Source of the DNA: Bilabrum cf. latius
Lineage: Eukaryota
Direction of reading: 5' to 3'
NCBI GenBank assembly: GCA_965178125.1
Contig: OZ237737.1
Coordinates: 248,001 to 312,000 of the forward strand
Length of the DNA: 64,000 nucleotides
Part shown: piece after piece, positions 1 through 64,000 of the stretch
Layout: the number at the start of each line of letters is the position of its first letter
Numbering within the stretch: the first letter of the stretch is position 1
The notes under the pieces: model-generated
What the model saw: only the letters and a program-made list of their open reading frames with translations
Database searches by the model: none
Told to the model about the DNA's origin: nothing
Position numbers and translations under genes: made by a program

Positions 1-2
1 GC

Positions 3-695
3 AGGGGCCTCGACCTCCCGCGACTCTCCCACGTCGTGAACTTCGACCCTCCCAAGACGGCAACCTCCTACGTGCACCGCGCGGGGAGGGTGGGCCGCAT
101 CGGGAGTCCAGAGGGGCTGGTGGTCTCCTTTGTGGCGGGGGAGCCAGTGCCAGGGAACAGGGGGGCCGAATTGGATGTGATGAGTGCTGCTGACGCTGCC
201 GCGGCGGGCTTGGGATCGGCAACGACGGTGACCTCGGCCGGTGGGGACGCGTCGGTCGTCGAAGAGGCAGTGGATTCGGGGGACGACATGAAGGCAGGGG
301 GAGAGGGAGAGGCTGGGCGGAATGTGGGTGGTGATGGCGGTGACGGCAGTGGGAACACTCGCGGGGGGCGGGGTGGCGGGTTGCTGGCAGTCCCCGAGCG
401 GGGGGTGCAGCTGATGGAGGTGGCGAGGGCAGTGGGTGCGAGGGGGGGCGGGTTGCGGTGGGCGGTGCTTCGAGAGAACTAGCTCGTGTACGGGGACGAC
501 CGTGTGCTGGAGCCTGAGGAGGCGCTTGGGCTGGTGCTTGGGGACGAGGAGGAGGAAAACACGGACAAAATGGGTGGAGAGGGACAGTCGTGGGGCGATG
601 CGGGAGGGTCTGCCGCTGCTAGTGTGAGCACAGCCCCTGCCTCGAGCTAGACCGCTGAAGCGAGTTTTGGTGTTGCAGCTATCGTCCGGGGCTGA
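3..695 (+). CDS. DEAD-box RNA helicase, C-terminal part (5' end outside window)
   Basis: RGLDLP (motif V) and [10 protein letters not shown] (motif VI). The frame continues through TAG 480 and TAG 648 to TGA 693-695. Confidence 0.8.
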
Positions 696-938
696 TTAAG
701 TATCGAGAGCTCAATGCGGTAGTTGATTGCGTAGTGTGTATGTGTGCATTTGGTCCAAGCCTCGCAGCAGGCGAGTGCGGTATATCAGAATCACCAAATC
801 ACACGCAACAAATAGCTAAAGCGACAAGCAATCCTTTGCAGCACTTTTCCTGATTGATCGAAGTGGTTCTGTCACTGCGGTTCTTAAAATCAGTGCATTC
901 ATATTGTTTTCTTCTACTGTTGGCCTTATTGTATTAAA

Positions 939-2655
939 ATGGCTGGCGTAGCCGGATCTGGTGACGGCGGAAAGGCAGGCGGGGGCTCCGGCTCGACGAA
1001 ATTTCCGTCTTTCGGCGCAAGCGATGACGCGGTGCTGAAGGCTTGCAAGCCCGATGCACCTGAAACATTGGGCGGCTGGGTGGAAGACACAGAGCCGGAG
1101 CACCCGAGCGTCGTGATGCATATGATCCGCTCGCTAATGCCCGGGTAGGACCTAACGCGTGTGACTATTCCATCGTGGTACTTGGAGAACCGGTCGCTTC
1201 TGGAGAAGTTTACTGACGTAATGATGCATCCAGAGATGGCACTCAAGTGAGATTGAGGACTGTTTCTAACTCAGCCTTGTATCGGTTTTGGGCGGCCAGT
1301 GTCGGGTCTCGATTGTTTTCACGGATTTATCTCTTCTACGGTAGCGCTAAGCGGGACTCGTTCCACCAAGTATTTATTTAGTATTCTTATCTAAGAATAA
1401 TTGCTATGTGGCTGGGCCCAGCGTGATAAGCGGCCATTAAATGCATTGGTCACCATCAACTGCCCTCCTCGCTTGCCATTGCCCATGCCAACTAGACAAG
1501 ACTGAGCACACGGTCCCTCCCCTCTCCGTCTTGAATGATCGTAGGGTGGTAGAGATGAAGACGCCTCACGAGCGCATGCTGCAGGTAGTCCGCTGGTTCC
1601 TTTCCGCGTGGCACTACAAGCTCAGCGGAATCAAGAAGCCGTACAACCCCATCATTGGGGAAACGTTCGCCTGCTACTGGCCGCACGAGGACGGCACCAA
1701 GACGCAGTACCTCGCGGAGCAGGTGCTGCACCGACCCCCAGTCACTGCGCTGTACATTGAAAACCGGAAGCGGGGCATCGTGTGCGACGGTTCCATCTGG
1801 ACCAAGAGCCAGTTCCAGGCCCCGCAGACCGCGGCCTCCCTGCTGGTGGGCAACGCCCGGCTGAACCTTATCAACCTGGACGAGCTGTACCACGTGACTT
1901 TCCCTAACTACTACGCGCACAACCTGCTGATGGGCACCATCCGCACCGAGGTGGGCGACAAGTCGGTCGTGATTTGCGAGAAGAGCGGACTGCGGGCCGA
2001 CCTGGAGTGGCACCAGAAGCCGATGCTCTGGGGGACCGACGAGATCGCGCGCGTAACGGTCAAGGTGAGCGAGATCAAGGGCGGCAAGGTGCTGTACGAG
2101 ATCGACGGGCACTGGGACAGCAAGTTCGAGATCACGGACGTGTCGAGCGGCAAGAAGAGCGAGTTCCTCGATGTGACCCAGCTCAAGGTCGCGCCCAAGT
2201 GGGTGGTACCCACAGAACTGCAGAACCCCTGGGAGTCTAGGCGGTTGTGGGGCAAGGTCACGGAGGCGCTGATGGTGCGACCCGAGGTGGACTGGGACGA
2301 GGTGACCCGTCGCAAGCTCAAGCTGGAGGACGAGCAGCGGGAGCTCAAGTGCCACAAGAAGGGGGACGAGTTCGAGGAGTGGCCCACCAAGTTCTTTGAC
2401 AAGATCACCGTGAGGGACCCCGACACGGGCAAGGACGTCGAGACCTGGAGGTTCCGCTTCGAGCGCGGCGACAAGTACGAGGAGGGGGAGGCGGAGATGA
2501 ACCTCGTGGCGTTGTCTCGCAGGACGATGGACTCGAGGGCGAAGCCTGGGGAGACACCCGAACTGGACGAGGATGGCAAGCCCAAGGCGAAGGGGGCTGC
2601 GAGCGGCGGTGCCAAAGCCAAGGAGGAGGAGGCCAAGCCCAAGGAGGACAAGTGA
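939..2655 (+). CDS. Oxysterol-binding protein-related (ORP/Osh) lipid transfer protein, 2 exons (939-1246, 1545-2655)
   Basis: SLMPG*DLTRVTIPSWYLENRSLLEK, KKPYNPIIGETF and EQVLHRPP motifs. GTGAGA...CGTAG intron restores the frame. In-frame TAG 1146-1148; ends TGA. Confidence 0.9.
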
Positions 2656-2823: not shown

Positions 2824-5800
2824 TCACTGGCCAGCGCCACCGGACGCGGCGCCGGCGTCCTCGTCAGCTGCCCCCTTCTCCTTGGCGTCGGCCAGCCTCG
2901 AAATCTCCCTCGCGCGATCCAGCGCAGCCCTGGACTGCGGCTGCGCGCCCATCCCCACGAGCGTGGCAGCCAGTTCCTCCCTCCTCACCAGCACCTCCTC
3001 TTCCTTGACCAGGTCCTTCACCTTGACCTTGCCCTCCTCCAGCTCGCTGCTCCCGAAGAACACGAGGAACCGTCGGCCCTGCTCCAGCGCCTCTTGGAGG
3101 GCCTTGCCCAGCTTCAGGTTGGTCGCAAACTTGGTCTCCGCGCGGAACCCCTCCCTCCACAGCTGTGCGCACACCCGGAACCGCTCGGCCTCCAGCCCCT
3201 TGTCGATCGACGCCACCACGATCTCGGGGGTGTCGGAGGCGGCCGCCTCTGCAGCCATCATCTTCTGCTCCATGATGGTGAAGATCCGCTCGATCCCGAT
3301 GCTCACTCCCACGCAAGGCACCTGCTTGGCGTCGCTCCCCTGGAACATGCCCACCAGGTTGTCGTACCTGCCTCCCGCCGCGATGGAGCCCACGGCGCTG
3401 GGGGACGTCAGAACCGCCTCATAGATGACGCCCGTGTAGTAGTCTAGGCCCCTGGCCAGCGTCAGGTCAAAGGAAATGCGGTCCAGGCAGCCCATCGCGT
3501 CAAGATACTCGAACAGCAGGCCCAGCTCCTCGAGCGCCTTGCTTGCCCCGACGTGTGGCGCGAAGGTGTCGGCCGCAATCAGCTCCCGCAGCAGAGCCTT
3601 GGGCTCGCCGAAGCGGGGCTTTCCGTCCTTCATTATGATCGCCTCGATCCGGCCGGCCACCTTCGCAGGAAGGCCCTTCTCCACCGTCATCTCCTCCATG
3701 ACCGCGGACCAGGGCTCCTTGTCCAGCTTGTCGATCGCGCTGCAGATCGTGCGGAACTTGGCAGCAGGTACCCCGGCCATGTCCAGGATCCCGTCGAGCA
3801 GCCCACGGTGGTTGAGCTTGATCTTGAACCCCCCGATCGGGAGATCGCCCAGGATCTCGCAGGCGACTTTGAGCACGTCTGCGTCCGGCATCATGAGCGG
3901 GTACTCCCCGGCGACATCAAAGTCGCACTGGTAGAACTCCCTGTACCTGCCCTTCTGGATCTGGGGGTTGTCTCGCCTGTACACGCGCGCGATGTGATAC
4001 CGCTTGAGCCGGTTCACGCCGTGCTGGGCCAGGAACCGAGCGAACGGCACGGTCAGGTCGTACCGCAGTGACAGCAGCTCGCCACCCTGGTCCGCCAGAT
4101 CGTAGATCAGCTTGCCGCCCTCCTCGCCATACTTGCCCATGAGCGTGCTCCTGAGCTCGAAGACGGGCGTGTCGATCTCCACGGCCCCGTGGCGCTTGAA
4201 CACGTTCCGGATGATGGTGAAGCAGAGCTCTCTCGCAGCCATCTGCTCCGGCATGAAGTCACGTGCACCGCGAGCCACCTTGACCTTGCTGCCCGACTAG
4301 GCAAGCGACATGTACAGCTCCTCGCAGAATTGCCGCAGCGAAGGCCTCTCGATTGCATCGCCCCCGCCAGCGCCCGCCCCGCTCGCCGCCCCAGCCCCGC
4401 CCTGCGCTCTGGCCAGGCGCGCCAGTCGGTCAACAGACGTGTCCACAGCTGCGCTTGCCGCATCAGCACCCAGCACTGGCACCTTCAGGCCCTCCCCCTC
4501 CCCTTCTACTGCCGATCGGAAGCTGCCGTGCAGCAGCTCGCGCACTGCCCTTGTCCCTCGTCCCAGGCCAATGCTGGGGATAGCGGCTGCCCCTCCCGCG
4601 CCCGCACCACCGGCCAGCTTTGCTTGGGACTTCTCAAGAGCCTCCTTGTCCTTTTTCAGCTTCTTTGTCAGCTTCTTTTTCTCCTTGCCATCCTCCATGT
4701 CGGACAGCGCCGCCTCTGTATCCGCAATCTTTTTGGCCAGCCTCTCGTTGGAGGCCTTGACCTTGTCGGCCTTGCTGGCGAGCTTTGCCGCAGTGTCCTT
4801 GGCCTCCTGCTCCTCGGCGGCGCACAGCACGCCGTCGGACGCGACGAGCTCGGCTGCAAGCGCGGCGGCGCATGACGAAACGACCCCTTCCAGCGCGGCT
4901 GCCGCGATCTCGAGCTGCTGTAGGGACTCCTCTGCGGTTCCACCGCCAAGCACGCGGGCCCCCTCAGCCAGATCAGTTCCTTTTGACGATGCACCAGCGC
5001 TGGGCGCCGAAGCAGCAGACCCGCCGGTCGACACCGATGCGGCACGCACGGTGGAGGCGTCCCTCAGGGCGCTAGTGGCGTCAGTGGCCTGCGTGGCGAC
5101 CAGCAGGAGCTATGCCGCGTGGTACGGCCGCACGGACAGCGCGCTGCAGGGCTTGCGCCTCAGCTTGCCCTCGGCCTCCTTGCTCGCTGCAGCGGCTGCC
5201 GCTGACCTGGCAGCGGCTGGTGCCATGGATCCCGCCCCGTCCACTGCGGGAGCCGCAGCCGATTCCACGCGTGCAGACGCAAGGGCCGCGCGCAGACAGA
5301 CCGAGACCGGGCCGCTGATCTCGTGAGGGAACTGCACGGCAGATGGCAGCAAGCTGGAGGCAGCTGCACCAGCGCCATCGGCCGAGGGATCGGCGGATGC
5401 TGCACCTGCACCTGCTGCTGCTGCGGCCTTCCCCTTCTTTCCCTTAGCTGGAGCTGCCCTTGTCGAGGCGGAAAGGAGAAGCCTGAGCCTCTCCGCGGCT
5501 GCCTTTTGCCCGGGGTGCGGTCTCCTAACGTCGCTCCACTCGGTGTCCACAGAGGACAGCGCGTCGGCCTGAAGGGCCTCGGCGGTGAGGGCAGCGACGG
5601 CGTCGCTGTTGGCGGCCAGCTCCCGCGCGCGCCAGACCGAGTACAAGATGCGACCTGCGGCGGATCCACCACCTAGCCGAAGGATATCTAGCTCTGAGTC
5701 AGAGAAGCCAGGGCCGGCGAGTGGCGGCACGCCCTCGGCGCCGTCCCTCGCCACGGCAGCCAGCTAGAGGTCGCATGGCGTCCCCGTGGACCACCGCGGG

Positions 5801-6330
5801 GCTCTCGGGTTTTGAAGCAGAGCTGCAATCCATTCCAATGCTTCGATTCGCACTCCACTCTGGACCTGCGATCAAATTAAGCCGCGCTAGTACCAATTGA
5901 TTGGCACGCTGGAAAAGTTGCACGCGATATTGCGACGGTCGATCGCTTGAGCAGCGGCTCCATCGGGGTGCGCTGTGCTTTCCGGGTAGACAATCTTACA
6001 TGGGCAAGTTTCAGCAGGGAGCCTAGGGTAGCACTGCGTGCCTCGGGCAATCCTAGCTTTGTTCCCGCTGCATCACCAACCTTGAGTGCGCTCGATGCCG
6101 CAAAGGTGCCCTCAGGAGCAGTCACGCGGACCTGCAGAATTATAGACTGGTACACGGCATTCTCCCAGCGAATGCTACATTTACTTGCGCTTAGATTGGG
6201 AAGATATCATACAACAATGACGCACCTTTTCCATAAATCCTGCATCGAACTCCACTCGAGCTCCGTCGAGGACTATCTATAAAAGCTCTGAAAGCGCTTG
6301 CTTCTCTCCATTTAGTACTACCTTTGACAT
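2824..6330 (-). CDS. HARS: Cytosolic histidyl-tRNA synthetase with N-terminal histidine ammonia-lyase (HAL)-like domain; 3 exons (introns ~6225-6132 and ~5999-5866)
   Basis: HisRS core: GARDF, LRYDLTVPFAR, GRYREFYQCDFD, LARGLDYYTG, GGRYDNL, GIERIF. N-terminus MSKVVLNGEKQALSELL*IVLDGARVEFD, plus SGVRIE and RPHPGQ, resembles HAL. ORFs join in frame through TAG 6277, 5764, 5110 and 4297; ends TGA. Confidence 0.9.
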
Positions 6331-8200: not shown

Positions 8201-8620
8201 TCCGGCGTGCAGCATGATCAATGTAGCATGCGGCTAGGGAGTCGGATCAGACCATTTGGCTTTCAAAGCAAGCATGAAGTCGTCAAATCTCCGGTGAGTT
8301 GAAAATCCATGCTTTGAATGATGTCTTTCAGATAAAATTTTAGCTACTGCACTACATTCTTGTCGACACGATATGTACTGAGTTTAGACTCGTAGTCAAC
8401 CCACGCTCGCTGATACTTGGTTTGGGAAGTGCGCGACTTGCAGTTGCACTTGTGAGAGCTGCGATCGGATCCGCAGCGCGTCAAGACAGTCCATTGCATT
8501 TTCGAAGCTTGCAGCAGTAAGAAGCGTTACAATTTGCCTTTGTATTCATATGAATCGCGTTAGATGTATTCAAATTGCGCTTTGGCAAGCCTTCCCTTCC
8601 TTCGCAGATCTCAATTGCGT

Positions 8621-10493
8621 ATGCAGAATATGCAAACGGTCTCTGGACTTGTGCTAGCCAGTCTTGCGTCCACATCGTCGGCTGTAAACACCACTATCGT
8701 TGATTTTACCGGGCCGTAGAATGTAGCAAAGTCTGCTCCGGCGGAATGTGCACCCGGGGTGCCTGCCTATCAGACCCTCATCATGAACACCGACTTCGAG
8801 CCAGAAGATGTCGGCCTTAGCATGGCTGGGATCCCAGCGTTCACGACCCAAGCAGGAGGTTGCGGGTATTCTGGCGTTGATTCTGCAGGAGGCAGCGATT
8901 GGCTGCATGGTCAGGACTACGGGATCCACCCGGCTGCCTTCGGTGAAGGCACGGCTCGTGTGCCATTCGAGCAAAAGAATGGTGGCATCCCGTAGAATCT
9001 AACGGGGGGACTTCCAGCACATGTAAAGCAGCTCAATGAGGCTATCGAAAAGACCCTCCCAATGGATTTCGATGGCATCATCTCCCTCGACTACGAGGGG
9101 TGGCAGCCAGTAGTGAGCCAACGGCCCCTCGAGACCTCCTGTCGCCCGATAGCACAATACACCGAATGGCCGCCTGAATACTCGATATCATTCGCACAAG
9201 AGTCGTACCCCGGGCAGAGGTTGTCATAAGCCTCGTTGGCCGGTCTATTGCTGGCAGCACCTGCTCGCTCCTGCACCCTCCCCACACCTATCCCAACCGC
9301 AGTGGGACAACTTTCTGTTCGGGGGCTACAAGAACTTCTCCATGCAGCTCGTCCTGGAGCAGCACCCGGAGTGGTCCTCCAACATGACCCACGTGGAGGA
9401 GGTGGCCGCCCAGCAGTTCGAGTCGGCGGGCAAGGAATTCTATCTGACCACGATCGACACCATCAAGAAGGCTCGGCCCAAAGCAAAGGTCGCCTTCTAT
9501 TCCACGCCGTTTAAGGGATGGCACAGCTATTTCGATCCCGTGAGGCTGCTTCCGGGCTAACGCTGCCATCAGCTCCGTTTCACACTGTCGCAGTCAAAGC
9601 ACTCCTTCGGCAGATTTTGCCTCATTTTCCCTTCCTTCTTTGCTTCCGAGTCGCAGGAGTACACCGCTAGTCAGGAGGCCCACAACAACGCGCTGCAGTG
9701 GCTCTGGAACGCCGTTGACGCGCTCTCCCCCGAGCTCTACCTTAACACCAGGCCACCGAGCAAGTTCACTCCCAACAACATCTCCTTTGCGCGGGCCATG
9801 ATGGGCGAGTCCCAGAGACTTGTGGACCAGACCTTCAACCAAACGGGCAAGAAGATCGGCATCGTGCCGTTCAGCTGGATGCGGGCTGGAGGGCACGCGT
9901 GGCTGCCCATTGAGGACCTGGAGGCAGACTTCCTCGTACCATTCGAGTACCCGGCGTGCTGGGGCGTCCTCGTGTGGGGCGACCCTGCCGTGGGCGACGT
10001 GGGTATGCCCGCCCTGCAGTCATACTACCAGAAGACCTTCAGGCCATGGGCGCTCAAGACTATGAAGTAGAGGTGTGATTGCCAGGCCACCAAGTGCAGC
10101 AACCACGGTCGCTGCGTGTTCAATGACACCGCGTGTGCCTGCGCTGAGGGGTGGACGGGAGACGATTGCTCCAAAAAGGCTAGCGCCCTTGGTGAGGTGA
10201 ACCCCGCCCCAGCCCTACGGGGCGCTTCTCAGCCGGCGGGTCCTGCCACGTACCAGGCGCTGGCCGATACCTACGCTCCACGGGAACCCCCAGCAGGCTC
10301 TGTGACATGCCCGGACGGCGTTGCCTACTGTCCCGCCGGAAATACCTGCGGACAGCTCACCACTGGCATGTGGGCTTGCTGCCCGCTACCAGATGCGGTG
10401 AACTGCGGGACGCACACCGGGTGCTGCCCCAAAGGCACCCTATGCGACAACGAAAACAATGTGTGCTACGACCCCGATGATGCGGCCGCTTGA
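8621..10493 (+). CDS. Secreted GH56 hyaluronidase-like glycoside hydrolase with EGF-like and granulin domains; introns ~9113-9302 and ~9540-9656
   Basis: Signal-peptide-like start; NGGIP*N, catalytic-type GIISLDYEGWQP, NALQWLWNAVDALSPELY; CSNHGRC...CACAEGWTGDDC (EGF); CPAGNTC...CCPLPDAVNC...CCPKGTLC (granulin). TAG 8717, 8993, 10068; ends TGA. Confidence 0.8.
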
Positions 10494-10709: not shown

Positions 10710-13700
10710 TTATTCTCCATTTCCACCCGCGGATGGTCCGGGTGCAGACCCCGCCCCGACGCCTTGCTGGTGCCTGCGAGCTAGCCAGACCTTCGCCTGT
10801 TTGTGGAGCAGCTTGGACGCGTGCTTCTCTCGGATCCCGTGCGCCAGCTTTGCTGTGGCTGTCTCTCTCTCCTGCTCTGCCACCGCCTCTGCAAGTGCCG
10901 CCTGCTCCTTCTCCCGCGTCTCCAGCGCCTCCTGGCGCGTCCTAGCCACGAGAGCAGCCTCTCTCAAGCGCTCGACCTCAGCCTCAAGTTCTCGAGCTCT
11001 GGACTCCGCCGCTGCTGCTCTCGCCTCTGCTCTCCCCGCCATCGTACGCAGCTGCCTGCGATCGTGCTTGGCATCTGCAGCCTGCTGCTGCAGCCTCACT
11101 GTCAGCGACGAGACCGCAGACCTTGTTTGCGGGTCATGCTGTGCTATCCCGATCCCCATGGCACCCCCTTGTTCCTCCCGCATGACCGTAGCATCATGGG
11201 GGATCGGCCTTCGTGAACCACTACTGGGTTGTCTCTGTAATGCCGCAGACCTATCACTCCTCCTCATTGGACTCACCTCGCCTATGCGAAAGGAATAGCT
11301 TTGTCCCGCTGATCCCATCGGTGATGGTGCTTTGTCCCCCCGAAGACCAGAGGTGACCGAGGCTGTGGCCGTGGGGCTTCTCACTCCGCTGCGGGGACTG
11401 CCAGAGACCATGCTGGAGCTCGGCTTCGGACTGGTTACCTGCATGGGAACAGCTTCCGGAGTTCCAAGCGCAGCACCTGCGCGCTCGCCCTTGCTCACCA
11501 ATGGAGCCGCCAGCGTCGCTGCTAAGGCGTCCCGAGCCTCTGCCTCTGCTTCCTTGTCCAGCTCGGATGCATCCATCTCAAGCAGGCGATCCACCTCTGC
11601 GGCCCGTCGAGTGATGGCCAGGATCTCGTCCGGGCTCTAGCCAATTGTGGCCACCAATGCCCCACCCTCCCCAGGCCTCCCGCCCGCAGAGAGCGGGGGC
11701 AGTCGCGAGGATCGATAAGCCACGGGTGATCGCTCGGCACTGCTTGTAGGAGGCACCCTCTACGCGTTTGAGATGGCGTGGTCTTGCTTTGCGTCTTGGT
11801 CACCAACGTACCAGTCTGCCGCTTGTTGAGGAGCTGGGGCTGCATGGCTGGCCTTGTGTTCTGACATATCGAGCTATGTGTCGCTTGCCTGCAATCCGCC
11901 ATAGCCTTGCGCAAAGTGGTGACGACCTTGATCATCCTATTGCTTGGCTCGGCTAGCACCGGCAACCATGGAGCGCAGCTGGCTGTGCATGCGCTCCATC
12001 TCGCCTCCGGGCGTGCCTCGGGCTGCCAGGGGAGCGCGGGCCGGCACCTCGAGCAGTTCAGAGATCCACACCATGTTCGCAGACGGTCCGAAGGCTGCGC
12101 TTCCATTGAAATGTGATGCCCTTGCGGCTTGGCCTTTCGGGGCTGTCCTGTGGCTTTGCATCCACACGCTGGGCGGCGATCTCGACATCCAGTGTACCAG
12201 CCACTCGTTGGTAGTGCCGCAAGACCGCGCCTCACGACTGCGGAGTGGCGAGCCACCCTCACTCTCTGCACCTTCACGACCGCTGTCTGAGTCGATCTGC
12301 GGCTCGGTTGACCCGAAAGCACGCGCCCAAGACTGTACGAGCTGCCACAGAAGTGGTGGGTCTCGCACGCTGCCCCCAGCAAACGGCATTGCGGACTCTG
12401 TGTGAACTGGTTGCCTGCATGCCTTGATCAGCTAGAGCTGTGCCCTCGCAGTTGCAGCAGCGCCGAGGTCGGGTGGCAGTGCCGACACCGAATCGATGGA
12501 TTCGCTCGAACCCGCCTCATCCACCTCGCTGCCCAGCATGGCAGTGCCGCGCCCCTGATTCTCGCGCGCCCGCCGCGCCTCTGCCTAGGCGGTCTGCGCC
12601 TCGAGCCGCATCGCGTCCTATACCGCAGACCCCACTACATCAGCGCCAGCCTGGCCCACCATACCCTGCAGCTCTTGCTTGGCCACCTACTCGGCGAAAT
12701 CGCCGGCACGCTGCGCAATCTGGCTGGCAACACGCCCGTCGGCAGGCTGTAGGAGGGCCCCAATAGCCCGGTCTAGTACCCCGCGCAGCATCACAACGCC
12801 TCGCGACCCATTGCTCGGAATATCCATGGCCTACTCAGGCGCATGGTTGTCGGCAGCAATGGCAAGTGCAGTCGCAGCCAGTAGGACGGTCTAGGGCGAA
12901 TCTAGGATCCTGCCACGGATCTTGCGAGCGGCCTCGCGCACCTTTCGCTCTCTCCCCGGGTCACGATGAGCCCTGTAGTGAGCCCTTGTCTATCTCGAGC
13001 CAGCGCGATTCCGATTGCCTCGACTGCTGCCCCTGCCTCGGGCTCCCGCGGTCTGCGTGCGTCTGGCTGGAGGCCCATCCATCCGGACACCTGCTCTGTT
13101 GCGCGACTTGCTGCGGCCACCCAATTCGGACTCATGCCCGCCTCCCACTTTCCCGGCTGATTCAGATGCAGCGCCGCATAGGACAGCCAGGTGCTGCTCA
13201 GCCGCCAGCTCCAGACCCAGCAAGGTCACTGCGAGGCCCAGCCGGGTCATGGAGCCGCTCTCGGCGAGCGATGCGGCGCCAGGCTCAGCGTTGCTACCGA
13301 GGAGATCGATCCCGATGCCAAGCTCCAACAGGCGGGCGCCTGCATGGCAGGCTGCTTGCCGCGCTACTGCCACGACGACGTCGATTGGGATCGCTCCCTC
13401 CGTTGTGCTGGCGCTGCCAGCCTCAAGACCCCACAGCAGCACTGGGACAGGAGCCTGCTTGAGGCTGTCGGAGACAAGGCCAGAAAGCTCAAAGGGCGCT
13501 CCGTGGGGCACGCGTCGCCTGACCAATGCTCCGGACACCGCGTCGCCGATGGCCGCAGAAACGGCTGCTTCGGGTGGGGCCAACGTCGGGACCGGCATCG
13601 CGCTGGTTGCAGGCTGCAAGCCGTGCGGCACGACAGCGAGCGACGGTAGGAACTGAACCGAAATACCGATCCAGATCGACTGGGGGATCAGATCATCGCC

Positions 13701-16700
13701 AGGGAAAACCCCGCCGTGTGCCAGGCGTCGTGCACTGGTAGGGTCAACAGTCGCTCGCACCGCGGTGCGATGCACCTCAAAAGGCCGGCTCACCACGTTG
13801 TCAATGGGCAGCATGGCGGCGGCCGGCAGAGCGGCCAGCTGGCGCCCCGTTTCGCAGGTGACAGACACTAGCACGGGCTGGTTGCTGCTCCATTCCACCC
13901 TTCGAAGCTGCGCCGCAAGCGAGGCCTGAGCTCCGCCGCTTCCTGCCATGCCATCCGATACGTGCGAGGCGTCCACATGAACGAGAGGAAGCGACCCAGC
14001 AAGCACGTTGACTGCGCTAAAGCTGCTGGAACCCTCGAACACGTGTGCGCTCTCCTCATCTGCAGGCCGCCCCTTGCCGCTGAGGGACCCACCTTCTTCT
14101 GTGGGCCGTTGCATCCGGCTAGCCACTCTTGGCTCCAGCCGAATTCCGCTTGCATCGTTGGCGCTGTCAGCACCGTGCGCATCTCCGGCCCTATGTACTG
14201 CATCTAGGTCCTGACGAAGGGCCGAAGTCCATCGTGCGGATGTCTTGGCGGAGTGGCGGGCACCGTACACTGCCTCAAGCTCGCCTGCCTCTTCGCCCCG
14301 GCTTCCACTCGTCCGCGCGTGGCGGCGCAGACCGCAAGACGCACTTGTCACAGAGACAGCCTGGCCGGAATCCACAGCAACGGCAGAGGTGCTCACGCTG
14401 ATGTACAGCCGACCGTACGCCCCAAGCCCTTGGCACCGGAACTCGATTGATGCCTCCTGAGCTATTTGCTCTGCGGAGCTAGCGCTGCCTGTGCCGGCTG
14501 ACCCCCCGGCGTCTGTCCTCTTTGGCAGAGCGGTGGTCTGAAGCGCATATGGCAGGAACGTGACCTTGGAAGTCAGCTGTCCAGCTCCTCGAGGGATGGA
14601 CCTTGCGCGACCTGCGGGCAGCATCGCCCATTTTTCTGCCTCCGGCAGGGTGGGGTCCCGGATGGGAAGGCGGATGGTGACACCGTCCCGGAAGAGGCAC
14701 CATGCCTTGAGTTTCTGGCGAAGCACTGCCCCCGCACTCTTCCGCTGATCCTCTGGCTTTGAAGTGCTTTTGCTGGTGCGCGATCCGTGACTTTCAACTC
14801 CATCGATCCAGTCCAGCAGCTCCACCAAAGAGGCCGTACCGGCCACCATGGCAGCATCCGTGTCTGTTTCCACCGCGCGGTCGCTAGACCCACCTTCAAG
14901 GGCAAGCATACCCCCTGTGTTGCCTCCGGATTCGTCTTGCTGCACGCCCAGTCGGATCGAACGAACGTGGATCCGGAGCTGTGGCTTGCCGCCCGCGAAT
15001 GCGTGAGGCGTAGGAAGCACGAAGCGCGGGGCTGCGCCACCAGCCCTCCGCCCGCCTGCCGCAGACAGCCCCGTACCGCCACCAAGTCGAAAGGACCGTC
15101 CTCGATTGGGCCCACCCCCGGTAGCCGAGCCAAAGCTCGGTACCCTGCTAACCCCTTCACCGTGCGAGTGCGGGGTGCCTGGCCCTGCGGTGCGGAACGA
15201 CGAGCCCCGCTGCAGGAGGTTGCGGGAACTCCCGACTCTCCGCGGATCGTTGCCATCCACAGCGCCTCCATGCATGGTAGCGGGCACGACTGCCGCTGCT
15301 CGCGGCAGCACGAGCGATCCTCTGTACCTCAGCGATGCCACCAGGTCTCGCAGCTGCGTGGCTGGCTCGCCATCGACGGGTGCCTCGACTCCCGTGTCCC
15401 CGAAAGTGCCCTGGTCTCCACTACTGCGAGCCTATGAGCTACCGTATGTGTCCCGTATCAAGCTATCGTTTGCATTAACCGTGGATCGAGGCTCTGGCTC
15501 GCCGCCCAGAGGATCTGTCTCAATCCTGGGCGGCCCCTCCCTGCTTGCATCGAGCGCGACCCGCTTGACAGGGAGCGCCTCTGTGGCAGCAAGCAGCGCC
15601 GGCTTGGGCGGGGGCAGGCCGTGCCTCTATCCCGGCCGGGGAGCGGGTGCCGAACCCGGCGCCACCGCTGCCGCTGCCTCCACCCAGAGCTAATCCCCGC
15701 CCGCAGCGACCAGCACGCCGCGCAGCCTGACCCCGGACATGGTCAGGCAACCCGCCACCACGTCAGGTCGCGCGCGTCGCAGCCTGCTTCCGCCGAGCGA
15801 TCCTTGGCTGCGCAGAGGCGCATTTGAAGCGCCGTGCGCCCCGCCCTCCTGGGCTCTGGAGCTGCCCGCCGCTATGCTAGGGGAGGACCTCGCCGCTCGC
15901 AAGGGGGGAAGGCCGTGCTTGCCCTTGCTATGCTTGCTCTCTCCATTGCGGTCGCGATCAGCTCGCTGCCGCATGCTACGCCTCCTGTGCTTGCCGTGCT
16001 CCACCCGTCCAAGCCCGCTGGCTTGGTCCGCCTCCGAATTTGGGTCCTGCATCATTGGAGGCAGCACGGCCGCAGCTAGCGCCTCCTATTCTGCGACCCG
16101 CTGCGACCTCGAGGGAACAAACGAGGCTTGTAGCGTGGCAAACCCCGCGTGCTGCAGGCCCTGATTTCCAGCAGCGCCGGGACCGGGGAACAAGAGAGGC
16201 ACGCAAAGAGCAATGTTTCCGGTGGATGCTTGCACTACCTCCGCCGGCACGACTAGCCAACCGACCGCCACCACGGACTCTGTGCTGGCTGCATCTGACT
16301 CCGCCACGTCTCGAGCAGCCTGTGCAAGCTGCGCGGCCGTTGACTGCATGTCGGTGGCCGCCTTCGTAACCCTCTCCCTTCCTCTTGCACAATGTGCGTC
16401 TAGATCCATGCCGTCGTGCAGCTGGGTTCCTCGCTTGGTGCTCGCTCGGATGGTCACCTGAAGCACGTGGCTCGGCCGCAACGACTATCTGGGGAGAGCC
16501 CGGGTGGCTGGCAGTGTGACGAGTGGCAGCGTGGGAAACACGACGGTGCCTCTGCACGGCAGAGTGGCGTGCACGGGCACGGTGCCTGCCGCCCCGGGAG
16601 CAGGCACGAGCGCATCAGCAGCAGCCTAAACAGAAGCCCTCCAGCCCGTTGTAACAGTACCATGACGAGCGAGCTAGCCGGCCCATATGCCCGTGTCACC

Positions 16701-35364: not shown

Positions 35365-35403
<39 letters not shown>

Positions 35404-45760: not shown

Positions 45761-45972
45761 CGGCCGCATGATGCGTCAAGATGCTCCACTAATGGTGGTA
45801 TTGGCAATTTCAGTGGCAGTGGCTAGGCCTCTCGAGTCACGCTAAAGCTGATCACTTTATGAAGCAGTTGCGAATCATGTGGTATTATTGCATAGGTCCA
45901 GATACTCCGCATTTTAATACATCAAATAATCATCTGCGATGGTTGGTTGCATCCGGATTCCGGAATCCGGAT

Positions 45973-47406: not shown

Positions 47407-47592
47407 GGCACCTCACAAAGTCAAAAGCTGAATGGATTTAGTTTATACGGATTAATTGGCTTTGATACCGATTAAACTGTATAGATTTAGCACAATAGGG
47501 ACAGGAAGAAGTGTTTTCAATCCGCCGCCCGGAATTAGAATAATCGGCAGTCGCTGCCTCAGCTCGCGAAACCGGTGTGGAGCACTAGAGAC

Positions 47593-50500
47593 ATGGTTGA
47601 GTCTATCATTCACCCTATTAACTATGCATGGGCCGACTTGGAGCCGGCGGAATCGCTTTCTTCTCTCGAGCTTGAAGATCTTCGAATAGGTAGCACCGAA
47701 GATGTTTCAAGGTGGCGATACTTGAGAAGTATCGTTTCGCTCCAGTAGAGGGGTGATGAACGTGGTACTAGCTATGCCCATGCGTCAGGGGCGTTCGTGG
47801 AATCAGTTTCGCTGAGGCAGGGCCCGGTAGCAGTCGGTGCAGGCGGCGACGACCACTCCTCTCGATTTCGGTTCACGTGTCTGCTACGCCTAGCCGACGG
47901 CAGCGTCGTGCCACTGCAGGCAGGATAGTCTATACGATTGGATGTCCGGCCCCTGGCCGAAGATGGTCGCACTGAGCACACGCAGGACAGCGCAGAGTCC
48001 GGATTGAGTTCCTTCCGTCAAGTGGCAATCGAACAGGCAGAAGAAGTGGCTCATGCCAGAGACCGTGCCGTCACCGAAATGATTGTCGTGTGTTGCATTC
48101 ACACCGGCTCGGACCGCGTGGCCCGCCCGATGCCGGGCGTGTACTCGTGCAGCTTGTCGTTCACGTTGAGGCGAGCAGCTCCCGCTCCCTCTGCCGTGGG
48201 CGCGCCGAGCGCCGCGGGCGGTGACGCCAGAGCTGTGGCGGTGAGGCTGCCCTTCTCGATCCAGGCGCGACGACAGCCAGAGCAGCCCGCCAGGGACCAT
48301 GAGTTCACCTTCCGCGAGTTCCAGAGAGACGTGCTGGCCCCCCTCGACAGGATGGTGGCGCAGTCCGCCGCGGAAGCAGCGGCGCCCAAGCGACCGGCCC
48401 CCGGGGTGGGGGTGTCTCTCAGGGAGCTAGCAGCCATGCGTCAGGACGCCGGAGCCGCGCCCGCTCCCTCCGTGGCCCGCTTCGCCTCCAGGTCCACGCA
48501 AGGGGCGCCGAGGACGACGGCCGGCGCCGCGGGGGACCCGTCCCTGAGCGCGTTTCCGGTTTGGTGGGGGAACACAAAGGGTGATGAGGAGAGATGGAAG
48601 GCAGAAGACATGGCCTGGCAGGGGGGGGCTCGCATCCCCGTGGGAGGCTTTCAGGCGCTGACACCAGCGGAGGAAGCGAGGGCCGCGGGGCTGCCCGTGG
48701 ACCAGGGAACAACGACCGCTGCCAAGGCAGTCCCGCAGAAGAGGCTGCGAGCGGTCCCGTTGCCGGCTCTGCAGCTGCTGGCAGTCTCGGGTGCGCTCAA
48801 GGGTCCCGTGACGGGCCCGCTCTCACGCAGGCTGAGGGTCATGCAGACTGTCGAGGACCTCGAGCACGCGCGCCGGGTCCAAGTGGCGCGCAGCAAGGTG
48901 CTCACCGGCCTGAAGGTGTTCTCGGTCAGGAGTAGCGACGGAGGGGGCGCGACCGCGGAGGTGACGCTGGGCCTCCGCCCCTCTGACGTCACTCGGGCCC
49001 ACTGGTGGATGAACCTGCTGGAGGGGCGCATGGTGCCTCTGCTGGTGGATGAACCTGCTGGAGGGGCGCATGGTGCCTCTGCTGGTGGATGAACCTGCTG
49101 GAGGGGCGCATGGTGCCTCTGCTGGTGGATGAACCTGCTGGAGGGGCGCATGGTGCCTCTGCTGGTGGATGAACCTGCTGGAGGGGCGCATGGTGCCTCT
49201 GCTGGTGGATGAACCTGCTGGAGGGGCGCATGGTGCCTCTGCTGGTGGAGGTGCGGCCGGAGGAGGATCGAGGGGATGCGGGCGGGACCTCGCGCCCCGG
49301 CGACGGCATTTCCTTTCACGTGGTGCGCGCGCGCGCAGAGGAACGGGAGGTCGCGGCAAGGGAGGGGAGGCTCGCACTGAAGGCAGGGACCCTGCGAGTG
49401 ACGGCGGGACCGGAAGACAGCCGCGTGCTGCACCAGCTGTGGACGCAGCGCCACAGGTTTAGAGCTAGCGGTGGTGGCAGTGGGGTCGATGGCAAGAAGG
49501 GAGGTGGGTCGGGGAACAAGGGGTCGTCGCGGTCCTCTTCTGGTTTGGTTGCGACCGTGCTGGAGGTGCACTCGTCCTCGTCACACCGCATGCGGAGGCA
49601 CGCAACGTGGCTTGCGCTGCAGGCCGTGGACGGCTCCACTGCCGGCGCGGGCCCTGCCGAGTACCCCGAGGGGGAGGAAGCGGAGGCCTGCTGGGAAGCT
49701 CTGCAGAAGCGCGCCGAGCAGTAGGACGAGACGGGGGCCAGGTGGCTGAGAGAAACAGAGCTGAGGAAGAGCAAGGCTGACATGGTGGGGAGGGCGGCGT
49801 CAAGGATAGACGCAGGGGTCCTCAGCCCGTGGCGCAGGGCCGCAGCAACGGAAGTCAGCGGGGAAGACGGCCACGAAGCGCTGCAAGAACTGAGGCGGTT
49901 GGCAATGTTTGCGATGCACCAGCTGCTGACCACACAAGTGGCGGGCGGCGCCAGGCGGCTCAACCTCGAGCAGCTGGCCGCCGTGGGCATGTGCCTCAAG
50001 CGCCCGCCGCTGGCCGTGGTGGTGGGTCCCCCGGGCACGGGCAAGACCACCACTCTCGCCACTCTCCTCTCGCACCTCCTCGTGAGCGAAGACAAGCCGA
50101 GGGTGCTCCTCGTCGCGCAGAGCAACGTCGCTGCGGAGCTGGCCCTGGTGCGCGTGCTGGACGCGGTGGCTGTGTCTGCGAGCGGATCGAGGCACGGTGA
50201 CGTGGACGCTGGCAAAGCTGTCCTGCGGATTGCCGCGCTGCAGCGCACTGCGGCGCACACGGAGGCGGAGCTGGGTGTCGGTCCGGCACGTGCCATCCAG
50301 GCCATCGCGTCGAGCGGGAACCCCCCCTTCGCCGAGATCGCGGCGCGGCAGCTGGTCGTCACCACCGTGGACACGGCGACAAAGTGGCTCGGCAACGTGT
50401 ACAACGCGCTGACTCGGCACGGGTGGACCTCTGACGGCGGTGGCAGCGAAGAAGAGGAGGACGAGGACCCGGGCCAGGGAACCGGCAAGCCGAGGGCCCC

Positions 50501-54207: not shown

Positions 54208-55471
54208 TCACTCCTCCATGTCAGCAGCTCCCCCTGCAGCAGCGCCCCTGCTGGCCGCTCGGATCTTGGCCTCCTCTTCCTGGGCCGCCCGTGCCACCTC
54301 CAGCAACGGCGCCACGTCCGCTCCGTCGTAGAGCTTCCAGGGCGAGCCGGCCCCCACGATGGCGAGGGTCGCGTTGTCCGCCGTCAGCTCCGCGCCGCCC
54401 TCCACGCATCCCATGAGGGCGCGCAGCGCGTGCACGGCGAGCTCGTCCCCGCCGCACCCCTTGAATCCCTCCACGTGCCTCTCCAGGTACGTGCGCGCCG
54501 CCTGGGACCGAGCCCCGATGGCGGTGGCGTGGTATTCGAGTGCGAAGCCCGCCGGGCTCGTCTCCCAGAGGCGAGCGCGGCCGCGGGGGGCTGCCTTGAT
54601 CTCATCGGCGGCTGCCTTCGCTGCCTTCGCTGCCTCTGCACCATCTGTGGGCTTTTCCTCTTCTTCCTCTCCCCCGGATCCGCCAAGGCTGAGGTTCTTG
54701 GGCCAATCCGCCGTCGGCACGACCGGTGCCTCACCATCCCACGCTGCGATTAGCAGTCCGGCACCATATGGCCGACGGACGTAAGACTGAGTGCATTCTT
54801 GTTGCTCTGCGGTGACCACGAAGGAGGGATAAGGGAGTGCATGATTGCAATAATTCGAACGGGAAGAATAAAAACACCACGGGACCCCTGCACGCGGGAG
54901 CAGGTGAATGTCAGGAGACCACGCGTCTGCTGAGCAACGCTACTGATTTGAATTAGAAACGATCCACAGGACTGGAGCTGTCGTCAAACAGAGGCGCTGG
55001 GAGAGTTGCTGCAAAGACTGCTCGCTCACTGTCGGACAGGTCGTCGACGAGCCTGGAGGGAGGAGCCTCGCTGCCAAACACGTATCTATGATTCAATGCC
55101 TCGGATCGCAAATGCCTATGCAGCGCCCTGCCGTCACTGGTCAATCCGGACACGGCAATGCCCATGTGACCGTCCACTCGAAAAAGCTTGGGCTGGTGCG
55201 CAGCAAGCTCGAAAGGAGACCTACGATGGATACGGCGTCAGGAAGAAGGTGCAATTTGCATCTTTGAGCCGTAACGTACACGAAGATGGGTGCATTCTCT
55301 CCTCGAGCGGTTGTCTCACCGCTTGACGCCAGCCACGACGGCATGTGAATCGCTAACAAGACCTACAGAGGCACTGCCCTGGTTGACCGCCTCTCCTGCA
55401 TATTCCAGCTGGAACAAACGACCCTGGGGGCTGAATGTTGTCACATCTGTGTCATACTGGTTCTTATTCAT
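54208..55471 (-). CDS. PSMA1: 20S proteasome subunit alpha type 1 (alpha6), 3 exons
   Basis: [67 protein letters not shown]. Ends TGA. Confidence 0.92.
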
Positions 55472-55597: not shown

Positions 55598-56361
55598 ATG
55601 GGGATAGTATCCATGCTCTTGGTTGCTGGGTATGCTTTACTGTCTACAATTATAAGCGAAGGTAGGGCCTACTATCGGCAACCGCAGGACTGTAGCGCGT
55701 AATTTTCCGATGAACCTCGCTTGCAATACCATCACATGTTTGCCTCGTGCTGTCCGCAGTTATCACTTACGTACTTGTTTACAGCACAACATCGTATAAG
55801 CGCAAGCATGAGGAACTTGAAGCGGCGCTCGATAGGCTTGAACGCGCCCGGGTTGCTGCAGTTGAATCTGATACTTCGCGTAGGGAAGACAAGAAGAAGC
55901 AGCTAGCCTCTATGGAAAAAGAATGCAAGCGAATCGCGGGAGAATTGAGTGGGCAGAAATTTTGGACGAATGCTGGCGCATCTGTGGCACTGTTTGTGAT
56001 GTACTGGGCCGCTCGGTCGTTCTTCGATTCGGCCGGCGAGGTCGCCACGCTGCCATTCCACCCCCCGTGGCCCATCAGCCAGCTCACGAAGATTGGATTG
56101 CCTAAGGACGCAGTGGCTACCGCATGCGGTTTCTCTGGAGTGTACGCAATGTGCAGCGCGGGCGTGCGGGTGCTGGTCCAGAAGCTCATCCAGCCGCCTC
56201 CGGCCAGGGGGCTGCCTGGAGGCGGCGGCAACGCGAACGGGGGCCTGGCAGGGCTGCTGGACGGGAGCACCCAGCAGCAGTTCTCGCAGCAGTACTAGGA
56301 CATGATGCGAAAGAACAAGGCAAAGATTGCCGCGGCGAGGAAGCGCCGAATGCTCAAGTGA
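55598..56361 (+). CDS. TMCO1: TMCO1 (Oxa1 superfamily/DUF106) ER membrane protein; intron ~55662-55759
   Basis: TM helix, YVLVYSTTSYK and coiled coil, VATLPFHP, CGFSGVYAMCS..VR..VQK. TAG 56296; ends TGA. Confidence 0.75.
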
Positions 56362-61151: not shown

Positions 61152-61809
61152 ATGCAGCGGTGCATCGTGGCGGACTCGCTCAACGGCTTCTTCTCACACA
61201 ACGGCAGGAACCACGCGGTCCGTAACAACCTCTTCCTGCAGGTATCATCGCCGGCCAACTTTGCAGGATCCTTCGAGTGGGGCAAACTGGAGAGCGAGTT
61301 CCAGGCACAGCTCGCCTCTGTGCCCTGAAGTAGCCGTGTGGGCCGCGCGATACCCGGACCTGGCCACCATATTGGCCAACCAGACCCAGCGGCAGTACAA
61401 CGTCGCCCTGCCGCGAAGGATCAGCGTGGGACTCAACCTGGCCTACAACAACACGGAGCTCAACGCGTGGGAGGTCGTCCACGGCGGATGGGAGCCAGCG
61501 CAAGACGGGGTGTGGAGTAGCAAGGGAGGCTTCCGAGACCCGAGGTACTGCGTGGGGTGCGTGCTGGGCCAATCGGCAGAGGCCAAGTGCAACGGGTGCT
61601 TCACCACCTGGGCCAACTTCGGGATACCCGGCAACCAGTCCTCACCCTTCGCGTGCTCGGATCCACTCGGCCAGCTCAACTTTACCCTGAGGCAGGATGC
61701 CCCTGTATGGAAGCACGGGTGGGAGAGGATCCCACAGGAGGCCATCGGGCCGAACGGTGTCGTGTCGGCCTGCTGCGAGAGGGCTGATCGGTTGGCTGCA
61801 CCGTCTTGA
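61152..61809 (+). pseudogene. C-terminal fragment of a right-handed parallel beta-helix protein, 5'-truncated and frameshifted
   Basis: HNGRNHAVRNNLF...LASVP ends at TGA 61326, then WAARYPDLA...GFRDP...NFTLRQDAPVWKHGWERIPQEAIG continues in another frame. There is no room upstream for the N-terminal part. Confidence 0.5.
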
Positions 61810-62015
61810 GGTGCTTTTCACTTGCTCCAGGATACAGGGCTGCCATGCTGGTGAAATGGTTACGTACCAAGAGAATAGCTTTACCGAAGGATCCACGGCT
61901 CAAAGTTGTCACATGTCATGCTCGAAGTCGCTGGTCGGGCGTGCTTGGCAGCCCCGGCCAGCGTGAACCCTGCGGTTGCGTGCACAGCTTCTTCGACTAC
62001 ACTACCATCCAAGCC

Positions 62016-64000
62016 TCAGATCTGCTCATGGTCAGAGTCCTCCTCGGGACCCTCATCGTGCGACTCGTCCACCTCCGCCTCCAATCCCGCGCTGTTCTCA
62101 TCAGCAATCGCATCCTCCAAAACATCCTCCCTTTCAATGCCCTCCATCTCCTCCAGGCTCGAGACACCCCCGGCAGGATCTGCTCCCTCGACCTCCGAGC
62201 CGTCGTCGGCAAGCCTCGCATTGCCGCTTGCGTCATGACCTCTGCCCTAGTCGCCTTCCTTGCCATCTGCTCCCCCCGCGCCCGCTTCGCCGTTCATGGA
62301 GCTGCGCATCCCTTCCACCGCTGCCTGGAACTAGTCAAGCTGCCAGCTCGGCCCAACCTCAAAATCGTCGTCCATGATACTGAGCTGCTCCAGCTCACTC
62401 ACGAGGTGCTCTTTCTCCACTGTATTCAACAAGAGTGCCGCGTCGATCTTGTCCGCTGCACGGACCAGCAACTCAGCTGCTGCCTCAGCAAAGTCTTCCT
62501 CCAGTATGCCTTCCGTGATTCCGTCGCTGAGACAACTGATAGTCCCGAGCTGGAAGGCTTCCCTGTACGACTCCACCGGCATGGTCGAAAGGTAGTTGGC
62601 GACAACGAATGTGGCCTCTTTGCGAACGCTCGGATCCTCCTCTTTCTCTCTGACGATTTCAATCGCGGCCTGCAGGGCACCCTCGTCCACCAGCTGGTGG
62701 GCCTGCTCGGGGGTCCCGGCAGCAACATTGCTCAGCGCCCACATTGACTCACGTCGCAAGGATACCTGCGGGTAGCCCATGCATTTCATCAGCAGGTCGA
62801 TGGCGCCGTGCTGCAGGGCGGCATTAGTAGGCTCAACGTTGCCTGACACCAGATCGGAAACGAATCTCTGCATCGCGGTGATCACCTATCGCGGCGGACC
62901 CGCTCCCGAGCTATCACTGCCGCCACTGGAGGAACCCGATCGCCCGGACGAGGACCCGGCCTTGGATCCCGCTCGAGCAGAAGCGGGGTTCACCTCTCCG
63001 TACTGGTCGAAGAGGGCCTGCATGCAGCCCATCAGGGCCTGGTGCAGCCCAGCCTCGATCACAGCCTCTATCTGCTTCTCGTCATTGTCGTTTTGAACGA
63101 GGTACTTGCAGGCCCAAACGACATCTGAGAGCATCTCCGTGTCCAGTGGTCGTCTTCTGCACAGCCCAGCCAGGGTTGTGGCGATCGGCAGGACATGTTC
63201 AAGAGGACGGCTAGGTCTAGCCCTGCGTAATATGCTGAGTAGGGCACTAGCAGGGCACTATAATATGCATTGATTCCCGTACGACTTCGTTCGGAGCACA
63301 TTGAGTCTAGCTGATTTCTGTACAAGCATGGCTCGAAGCAACTGATGGCGCGGACGGGTGTACCGTAGTCAAATACAAAATGAAACCCACCTGCACATGT
63401 TGGACAGCGCCCATGATGCATTTCGCAGCACATTTGTGGAGGCATCTGGATTATTCAGCAAGGCCAGCAGTGGAGGCAGCGCGCCGTCTTCCACGAGGCG
63501 GTCATGCGCCTCGACCCCGTCGCCCGCGAGATTGCCCACCGCCCACGCGCACTGCTCCTGGACCTCAGCGTGCGGGTTGCGCATTCCGTCGATGAGAGAC
63601 GTGGCTGCACCCGACTCCATGATGGCTGCGGAGTTCTCCGAATCACCGCTGGCGATGTTGGTGAGCGCCCATGCCGCCTCGAACTGCTGCCTTGGGTTGG
63701 TATCGTCGCGCAGCAGCTCAACGAGCAGAGGGATAGCGCCCAGTCTGCACGTCTCTTTGACGGGCGGGCTGTCTACTGCGTGGCAGCTGAGGCATTCGAG
63801 CATGGGCGTGGACTGTCCTGGCCTCGTTCGCCGCCTTCGAGTATAAGGTAGAACTAGCAGCGCTAGCACACTCGCATCGCACGTAGCACCTTCTTACCTA
63901 CGCTCAGCAATCGCCGGATATCATGGACGGCTTGCAATAGAATTTGCGGGTCGCTGCATACTCGTAGTGTGGAAACCAACATTGGCAGCAAGTCAACCTG
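62016..64000 (-). CDS. Second, divergent importin alpha paralogue (5' end outside window), multi-exon
   Basis: IRRLLS...[57 protein letters not shown] 62886, 62331 and ~62247; ends TGA. Confidence 0.85.

Follow-up and report, generated by a model that had tools for sequence, protein, structure and literature searches.

The DNA analysed here is a single stretch of 64,000 nucleotides (hereafter the window), in which the codon TAG occurs in frame within many genes. Eukaryotic genes occupy both strands of the window and are tightly packed, and the G+C content ranges from 57 to 69% per 4 kb, with an overall value of about 62%. Given its GT..AG introns of 96-310 nt and its poly(A) ends, the window is nuclear DNA, and the organism is a GC-rich, intron-poor eukaryote. 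UAG is a sense codon in expressed genes of this nucleus and stands at glutamine positions of homologues. We consider it very probable that UAG encodes glutamine and that UGA (common) and UAA (rare) still serve as stops, a code equivalent to NCBI table 15. An earlier note on this DNA, made from the sequence alone, had proposed the same code.

In-frame TAG codons in the window

Reading TAG as sense yielded longest open reading frames (ORFs) of 2579, 1634, 1457, 1173, 1086 and 1015 codons, compared with 813, 649 and 633 codons under the standard code. TAA read as sense gave maxima of 813, 682 and 633 codons and lengthened no genes. With TGA as sense, many middling frames appeared, to a maximum of 994 codons, which is the expectation for the commonest stop triplet in GC-rich DNA. 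TAG alone interrupts genes; TGA and TAA never do. Genes supported by Pfam, housekeeping genes included, extend across their own TAGs. TAG-bearing genes include those for histidyl-tRNA synthetase (HisRS), ALDH6A1, SLC26, a pyridoxal phosphate (PLP) enzyme of Cys/Met metabolism, Ap4A phosphorylase, a Nudt16-like protein and an Upf1-like helicase.

In total, 96 in-frame TAGs were counted in 24 ORFs: 86 in 18 ORFs, nine in five further ORFs (3-695, 8534-9229, 9798-10493, 18169-18888 and 55747-56361) and one in a spliced gene for a twin-CX9C protein. The earlier note's figure of about 90 TAGs in 22 genes was close, although some of the 96 are doubtful as coding. Four of these are at aa 60-92 of the 2579-codon ORF, a part that it shares with ORF 18169-18888 in another frame, and the true start of the larger ORF is probably downstream of 18169. 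A few other doubtful TAGs are within N-terminal extensions ahead of any recognisable domain. TAG makes up 86 of the 713 presumptive glutamine codons of the 18 ORFs, next to 500 CAG and 127 CAA. The housekeeping families that had been named from sequence (HisRS, ALDH6A1, SLC26 and OSBP) were all recovered by Pfam, but the OSBP ORF was wrongly listed as interrupted, as it is without a TAG.

TAG codons in transcripts

Nine sequencing runs contain window DNA, none of which is on record as RNA. Three supposed RNA runs (X5, X6 and X7) and one deep DNA run (X4) were compared over positions 28000-47999, with the RNA nature of the former judged from splice joints and poly(A) ends. X5 pieces were used as listed, and parts of this 20-kb region without RNA cover were given no interpretation. 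GT..AG joints linking 30340 to 30651, 32758 to 32924, 37015 to 37112 and 37218 to 37354 were present in X5, X6 and X7, and X4 was without all four. Loose poly(A) ends occur in X5 after 32255 and 37585. The GT..AG splicing and poly(A) tails therefore mark the contigs of X5, X6 and X7 as mRNA-derived, although X5 was automatically classed as 'probably DNA' and all of the RNA evidence consists of assembled contigs rather than raw reads.

Eighteen in-frame TAGs are kept unchanged in the RNA contigs. The listed X5 pieces cover 17 of these codons, with no other letters and no gaps: three in 28000-29627, one in the ALDH gene, six in the Nudt16-like gene, three in 35413-36813, two in the SLC26 gene and two in the Cys/Met enzyme gene. 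Contigs of the acidic-protein gene over 28000-29627 were unchanged in three runs. The ALDH TAG is covered by polyadenylated X5 record 10 and by X6 record 17, again with no other letters; the latter is spliced at the ALDH intron and continues through TAG 32065 and past TGA 32143. All six Nudt16-like TAGs are spanned, unchanged, by X5 record 11. X5 record 14 (38705-41526) is likewise unchanged over the SLC26 gene, and X5 record 15 (45942-47477) shows no other letters over the Cys/Met enzyme gene.

Contig depth in the 20-kb region peaks at the twin-CX9C gene. Exon 1 of this gene closes with its TAG (37015-37017), which abuts the GT donor and is present in spliced contigs of X5, X6 and X7; the gene stops at TGA 37387-37389, with poly(A) after 37585. 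Creation of this TAG by splicing was considered and rejected, as the GT..AG cut leaves the codon wholly in exon 1.

No splice joint was found at any TAG in the RNA contigs of this region. The sole difference over the 20 kb was 33574 C>T, which was seen in all four runs. Because DNA run X4 also reads T, the difference reflects an error in the assembly or variation between strains and not editing. Since the TAGs are unchanged in spliced and polyadenylated RNA, editing to CAG and splicing-out are excluded at the covered sites. CAG in transcripts and splicing at TAGs had both been raised in the earlier note as ways to explain the TAGs away; neither was seen in the RNA contigs, and its claim that UAG is sense in expressed genes is borne out by the 18 unchanged codons.

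Amino acid at TAG

In order to keep the alignments unbiased, TAG was entered as X in all searches. The ALDH gene encodes a methylmalonate-semialdehyde dehydrogenase, the best solved relative of which is human ALDH6A1 (E 6e-196, PDB). Its exon 1 is joined at 30340 to 30651, which yields an N-terminal presequence. The gene has its TAG at 32065-32067 and its stop, TGA, at 32143-32145, followed by poly(A) after 32255. This TAG faces a glutamine of human ALDH6A1, and its column holds Q in 108 of the 120 best homologues (K 3, D 3, S 2, Y 2, E 1, H 1). The Ap4A gene has TAGs at 44357, 44648, 44765 and 45092, of which 44765 faces a glutamine of yeast Apa2 in a column with Q in 140 of 149 (V 5, E 3, W 1; 150 best representatives). 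In the GH56 exon, TAG 8993-8995 is in a conserved motif and faces Q in all three matched hyaluronidase structures (3/3); TAA 9227 at the end of this exon is probably intronic. The Cys/Met enzyme gene has TAGs at 47131-47133 and 46960-46962, and Q is the commonest residue in the column of the first (Q 36, E 26, R 17 of 119).

Columns at the Nudt16-like TAGs are variable and polar. The SLC26 gene, with best PDB match SULTR4;1 (E 1e-87), has TAGs at 40224-40226 and 39126-39128. TAG columns of the Nudt16, SLC26 and EMC3 genes either vary or fall outside the domain, and they do little to separate polar residues. Log-odds were calculated from columns with at least 30 sequences, leaving out three sparse Ap4A columns. 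Over the four TAG columns they came to +5.0 nats for Q, -5.0 for E, -5.7 for V, -6.6 for L, -7.5 for H and -7.8 for S. Pfam bit scores were then compared with each candidate residue placed at TAG (Table 1). Q, L, E, K and S were the residues scored in five of the seven window families (EMC3 also X). The Nudt16-like family was additionally scored for H (131.4), Y (130.0), R (129.9) and W (126.7), with L and W 3.6 bits under Q. The earlier assignment of glutamine to UAG is upheld by the three conserved Q columns, by the log-odds and by the Pfam sum, with one contrary leucine column that is taken up below.

Table 1. Pfam bit scores of seven window families with each of five residues read at TAG
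Family	Q	L	E	K	S
Nudt16-like	130.3	126.7	129.9	130.4	129.5
Sulfate_transp	329.5	329.0	329.2	329.5	328.7
Cys_Met_Meta_PP	281.2	280.7	280.6	281.0	280.7
Aldedh	440.1	437.3	439.9	439.0	438.6
Ap4A_phos_N	58.2	52.6	54.1	54.5	53.5
Glyco_hydro_56	28.4	23.5	25.1	25.6	24.6
EMC3	52.1	50.6	51.9	51.9	51.2
Sum over seven families	1319.8	1300.4	1310.7	1311.9	1306.8

The acidic protein contains a 51-nt tandem repeat at 29598-29796 (3.9 copies, 98% matches) that encodes a 17-residue acidic unit. Three TAGs are in the repeat: copies 2-4 each follow a TAG, whereas copy 1 follows a CAG. A TAG stands at every inter-copy junction. The paralogy of these copies was set aside as evidence for glutamine beyond a hint, as the first codon base is outside the repeat homology.

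Stop codons

The 18 ORFs end in TGA (15) or TAA (3), and ORF 18169-18888 also ends in TAA. The TAA ends are at 10710-10712, 18169-18171, 30092-30094 and 45973-45975, exactly where the earlier note had placed them, and beyond these four the next TGA or TAA follows 1, 16, 17 and 17 codons on. The TGA of the ALDH gene falls at the same residue as the end of its relative and as the C-terminal end of the human ALDH6A1 chain. At the TAA of the Cys/Met enzyme gene, the protein of the relative ends at the same aligned place. Both the twin-CX9C and the FMN reductase genes terminate at TGA.

Eleven TAAs have 150 or more open codons ahead of them and 60 or more behind, and no credible sense TAA was found among them. 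They are antisense to known genes, in other frames that hold no gene, or at the GH56 exon end, downstream of which the third-position G+C is low. TAA as a sense codon was thus rejected on three grounds: no ORF gain, no credible in-frame TAA and four TAA ends. TAA is retained as a terminator, on a small sample of four ends, and TGA, judging from where the genes end, is retained as well. Retention of both stops had also been part of the earlier proposal.

It had further been claimed that no gene ends in TAG. ORFs called with TAG as sense cannot end in TAG, and the claim can therefore be checked only where homology or RNA fixes an end. It is correct for the ends fixed in this way (about four), none of which is TAG; elsewhere, a TAG end is excluded by the construction of the ORFs.

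Related species

Fragments in the protein collection with 64-87% identity to window proteins behave as standard-code ORF calls on TAG-bearing genes. In the Ap4A gene, fragment P0242 ends just ahead of window TAG 133. Fragment P0241, the nearest Ap4A relative (77% identity), carries Q at the positions of window TAGs 230 and 269 (44648 and 44765) and stops where the window gene has Q 347. Fragment P0393 (71% identity, BLASTP) begins just after TAG 363 of the 2579-codon ORF and ends exactly before TAG 655. Similarly, P0121, a relative of the Cys/Met enzyme, begins two residues past TAG 2, as if there were a stop there too.

No relative came up when metagenomes were scanned with the Ap4A protein. 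The same kind of scan with ALDH identified contig L001 (5868 nt), which has a G+C content of 55.7% (about 62% in the window) and an ALDH orthologue with 87% protein and 79.7% DNA identity. As in the window, the ALDH gene is followed by the FMN reductase gene. L001 contains a 423-codon ORF with 10 in-frame TAGs and another ORF with two. A TAG in its FMN reductase gene faces a window glutamine in a conserved block, with Pfam scores at this codon of 66.6 for H, 66.1 for Q, 64.4 for K and 62.5 for L. TAG and glutamine thus correspond between two species at three sites, two in P0241 and one in the FMN reductase of L001. TAG-as-glutamine is thus a trait common to at least two species, with TAG-bearing ORFs in the relative and interchange of TAG and glutamine codons between the two. 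Upstream of ALDH, L001 has ankyrin/coiled-coil genes where the window has the acidic protein.

Alternative explanations

UAG could be a sense codon for a residue other than glutamine (Glu, Lys, His, Leu or Ser), as with UAG=Leu in a rhizarian and UAG=Ser in Scotinosphaera. Several observations weigh against glutamine. The column at the second TAG of the Cys/Met enzyme (46960-46962, aa 149) holds L 99, V 9, I 9 and M 2 of 119 and no Q; by its column this is the only site speaking against glutamine, and we leave it without explanation. His scored above Gln, by 0.5-1.1 bits, in both families scored for it (131.4 versus 130.3 in Nudt16, and 66.6 versus 66.1 in the FMN_red domain of the relative). 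Five structures aligned at an SLC26 TAG give H, L, L and gaps. At the window TAG site of ALDH, E is found in the nearest relative (GAG in L001), and P0393 has H opposite TAG 592 of the 2579-codon ORF. On the other side, three strongly conserved glutamines sit under TAG, TAG and Q correspond at the three sites between two species, and the four-column log-odds are positive for Q and negative for E, L, H and S. His is rejected by the deep columns. In the summed Pfam bits, Q leads K by 7.9, E by 9.1, S by 13.0 and L by 19.4. We regard another residue as very improbable.

A second possibility is an ambiguous UAG that is read as glutamine within genes and terminates near some mRNA 3' ends, as in Condylostoma, karyorelict ciliates and Amoebophrya sp. 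ex Karlodinium. The ORF method is blind to TAG terminators, which leaves room for occasional termination at UAG, and in several ORFs the last TAG is 26-74 codons ahead of the TGA or TAA. However, ALDH homology runs past the last TAG to a shared C-terminus, and repeated or coding-like sequence continues in the tails past the last TAG of the helicase ORF and ORF 41654-43972. In addition, the ends fixed by RNA or homology (ALDH, twin-CX9C, FMN reductase and Cys/Met enzyme) are all TGA or TAA, and we hold such ambiguity to be highly improbable. It could also be argued that the code is standard and that the TAGs go untranslated as pseudogene lesions, short introns, editing sites or assembly errors. 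The bare presence of in-frame stops would fit this, and nothing further in its favour was found. Against this explanation, interruptions are by TAG only and never by TGA or TAA, and TAG persists in the RNA contigs, where neither editing nor a splice joint was seen at any TAG. The window sequence is matched by DNA run X4, the TAG pattern recurs in an independent metagenomic relative, and housekeeping genes are among those affected. The chance that the TAGs are untranslated is practically negligible.

Mechanism and comparison with known codes

By analogy with other reassignments, UAG as glutamine with UAA and UGA as stops would involve three changes. A tRNA-Gln with anticodon CUA, one base from the normal CUG, would read UAG but not UAA; glutaminyl-tRNA synthetase would accept this tRNA; and the release factor eRF1 would be without UAG recognition, keeping UAA and UGA. 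Reading UAG without UAA is possible only for a tRNA with anticodon CUA, which is one substitution from tRNA-Gln(CUG) (PMC5304391). The anticodon is an identity element for glutaminyl-tRNA synthetase, and the change must be tolerated (PMC5304391). Candidate eRF1 changes are, for Iotanema, T32G of the GTS motif and, for the rhizarian, L69A (PMC5304391). A tRNA scan of the 64-kb window found no tRNA gene and an Rfam scan gave no match; eRF1 is not among the genes of the window.

To our knowledge, UAA and UAG are nearly always reassigned jointly. A handful of lineages that split UAA from UAG are named in PMC11687900 and PMC5304391. UAG alone is read as glutamine in Iotanema spirale (Fornicata), Protocruzia tuzeti and two phyllopharyngean ciliate lineages (PMC5304391, PMC11687900), as leucine in one rhizarian (exLh) and as serine in Scotinosphaera (PMC11687900). 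The earlier note's account of UAG-only cases (Iotanema with Gln, one rhizarian with Leu and a few ciliates) matches PMC11687900.

Iotanema, Protocruzia and the phyllopharyngeans share with the window the codon, the residue and the stops UAA and UGA. The window differs from these lineages in its base composition, which is GC-rich at 0.57-0.69 per 4 kb, and in its spliceosomal introns, which measure 96-310 nt. TGA is its commonest stop, whereas UAA is primary in I. spirale (PMC5304391). Iotanema is known from a transcriptome, the authors of which expected a genome to reveal the tRNA (PMC5304391), whereas genomic DNA runs exist for the window. In exLh and Scotinosphaera, as in the window, UAG alone is changed and UAA is a stop, but the residue differs. 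Table 6 (UAR to Gln) is used by many ciliates, hexamitin diplomonads and green algae of the Dasycladales, Cladophorales and Trentepohliales. It shares UAG as glutamine with the window, presumably via suppressor tRNA-Gln. UAA is sense in that code, whereas the window shows no gain from TAA as sense and four TAA ends. The ambiguous codes of Condylostoma, karyorelicts, Blastocrithidia and Amoebophrya sp. ex K. veneficum resemble the window in having in-frame stops in essential genes that are kept in transcripts. They involve two or three stops in AT-rich genomes (PMC12005148), unlike the window, in which TAG alone is affected and TGA and TAA behave as dedicated stops.

An ALDH tree was constructed using FastTree from 118 of the 120 hits plus the window, leaving out P0002 and P0003 (long or partial). 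The window and P0001 fell into a 51-row clade that includes seven oomycetes and has a local support of 98, with animals and Amoebozoa outside it. This offers a hint of an oomycete-side placement of the organism. The tree does not identify the organism, because it represents one mitochondrial enzyme and its rows are mostly unnamed.

No GC-rich, non-ciliate genome with UAG as glutamine was found in the literature searched, in which coverage of subscription journals and supplements was incomplete. With a confidence only a little above even, we favour an independent origin of UAG-only reassignment to glutamine. It would have arisen in a lineage that is neither ciliate nor metamonad and is without a reported code deviation, oomycete-side on one gene tree, GC-rich and with TGA as its main stop, and it would be fixed in a clade comprising two or more species (~20% DNA difference). 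If true, this would be the first non-ciliate genome in which tRNA-Gln(CUA) and the eRF1 change parting UAG from UAA are readable directly. Loss of UAG by eRF1 with UAA kept is still argued from few sequences (PMC5304391). A further case would serve as an independent replicate for the origin of the tRNA from CUG to CUA, for the eRF1 substitutions and for the conditions that free UAG. The present case brings genomic DNA, RNA data and a sister species, in a GC-rich, TGA-dominated rather than AT-rich setting. It also bears on annotation: the standard code breaks up such genes, and the 2579-codon ORF is in the public protein collection only as TAG-bounded pieces.

Other features of the window

The genes and ORFs of the window are listed in Table 2. 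Several long ORFs are without a Pfam family.

Table 2. Positions of genes and ORFs in the window
Feature	Position	Strand	Evidence and remarks
DEAD-type helicase C-terminus	3-695	+	Pfam
OSBP	1441-2655	+	Pfam; no TAG
Histidyl-tRNA synthetase	2824-5853	-	Pfam tRNA-synt_His and HGTP_anticodon; 3 TAGs; stop TGA
GH56 hyaluronidase-like exon	8534-9229	+	Pfam Glyco_hydro_56; 3 TAGs
Granulin/EGF protein	9798-10493	+	Pfam
2579-codon ORF	10710-18449	-	23 TAGs; no Pfam family; TAA then directly TGA
BSD protein	19193-20875	+	Pfam
Sulfatase	20996-22825	-	Pfam
Importin-alpha-like Arm repeats	23739-25905	-	Pfam
Acidic low-complexity protein, 1085 codons	26837-30094	+	6 TAGs; stop TAA at 30092
ALDH6A1-like dehydrogenase, exon 2	30670-32145	+	Pfam Aldedh, 438 bits
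NADPH-dependent FMN reductase	exons 32509-32758, 32924-33354	+	Pfam FMN_red; no TAG; stop TGA 33352
Nudt16-like NUDIX	33704-34888	-	Pfam PF22327, 128 bits; 6 TAGs, 3 within domain
Twin-CX9C protein	exons 36943-37017, 37114-37218, 37354-37585	+	Spliced contigs
SLC26/SulP with STAS domain	37815-41318	-	Pfam Sulfate_transp, 326 bits, and STAS; stop TGA
Ap4A phosphorylase / ATP adenylyltransferase-like	43961-45760	+	Pfam Ap4A_phos_N and ATP_transf
Cys/Met-metabolism PLP enzyme	45973-47406	-	Pfam, 281 bits; stop TAA 45973-45975
Upf1-like (AAA_11/AAA_12) helicase, 1622 codons	49209-54077	+	6 TAGs; stop TGA
Proteasome subunit fragment	54208-55077	-	Pfam
EMC3	55747-56361	+	Pfam
Coiled-coil protein, 1435 codons	56602-60909	+	8 TAGs; stop TGA
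Arm protein	62016-63341	-	Pfam

The catalytic domain of HisRS (aa 529-857) follows an alanine-rich N-terminal extension of ~500 residues that matches no Pfam family. A tandem repeat with a 40-nt unit is located at 48962-49321 (seven overlapping 120-nt copies at 40-nt spacing), between ORF 47575-49092 and the helicase ORF, and one peptide both ends the former ORF and begins the latter. The two ORFs may be one gene with its frame set by the copy number of the repeat; alternatively, the repeat may be intronic or collapsed in the assembly.

The best named homologues of the Cys/Met enzyme are bacterial or bacterial-type cystathionine gamma-synthases (40-46% identity; Gemmatimonadaceae, Rhodothermaceae and NC10), and its N-terminal extension resembles a targeting peptide. 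The gene may be of bacterial origin. The GH56 hyaluronidase-like gene adjoins the granulin/EGF gene (8534-10493), and the Nudt16-like gene is elsewhere in the window. All three families are known chiefly from animals, an odd finding next to the oomycete-side placement of ALDH.

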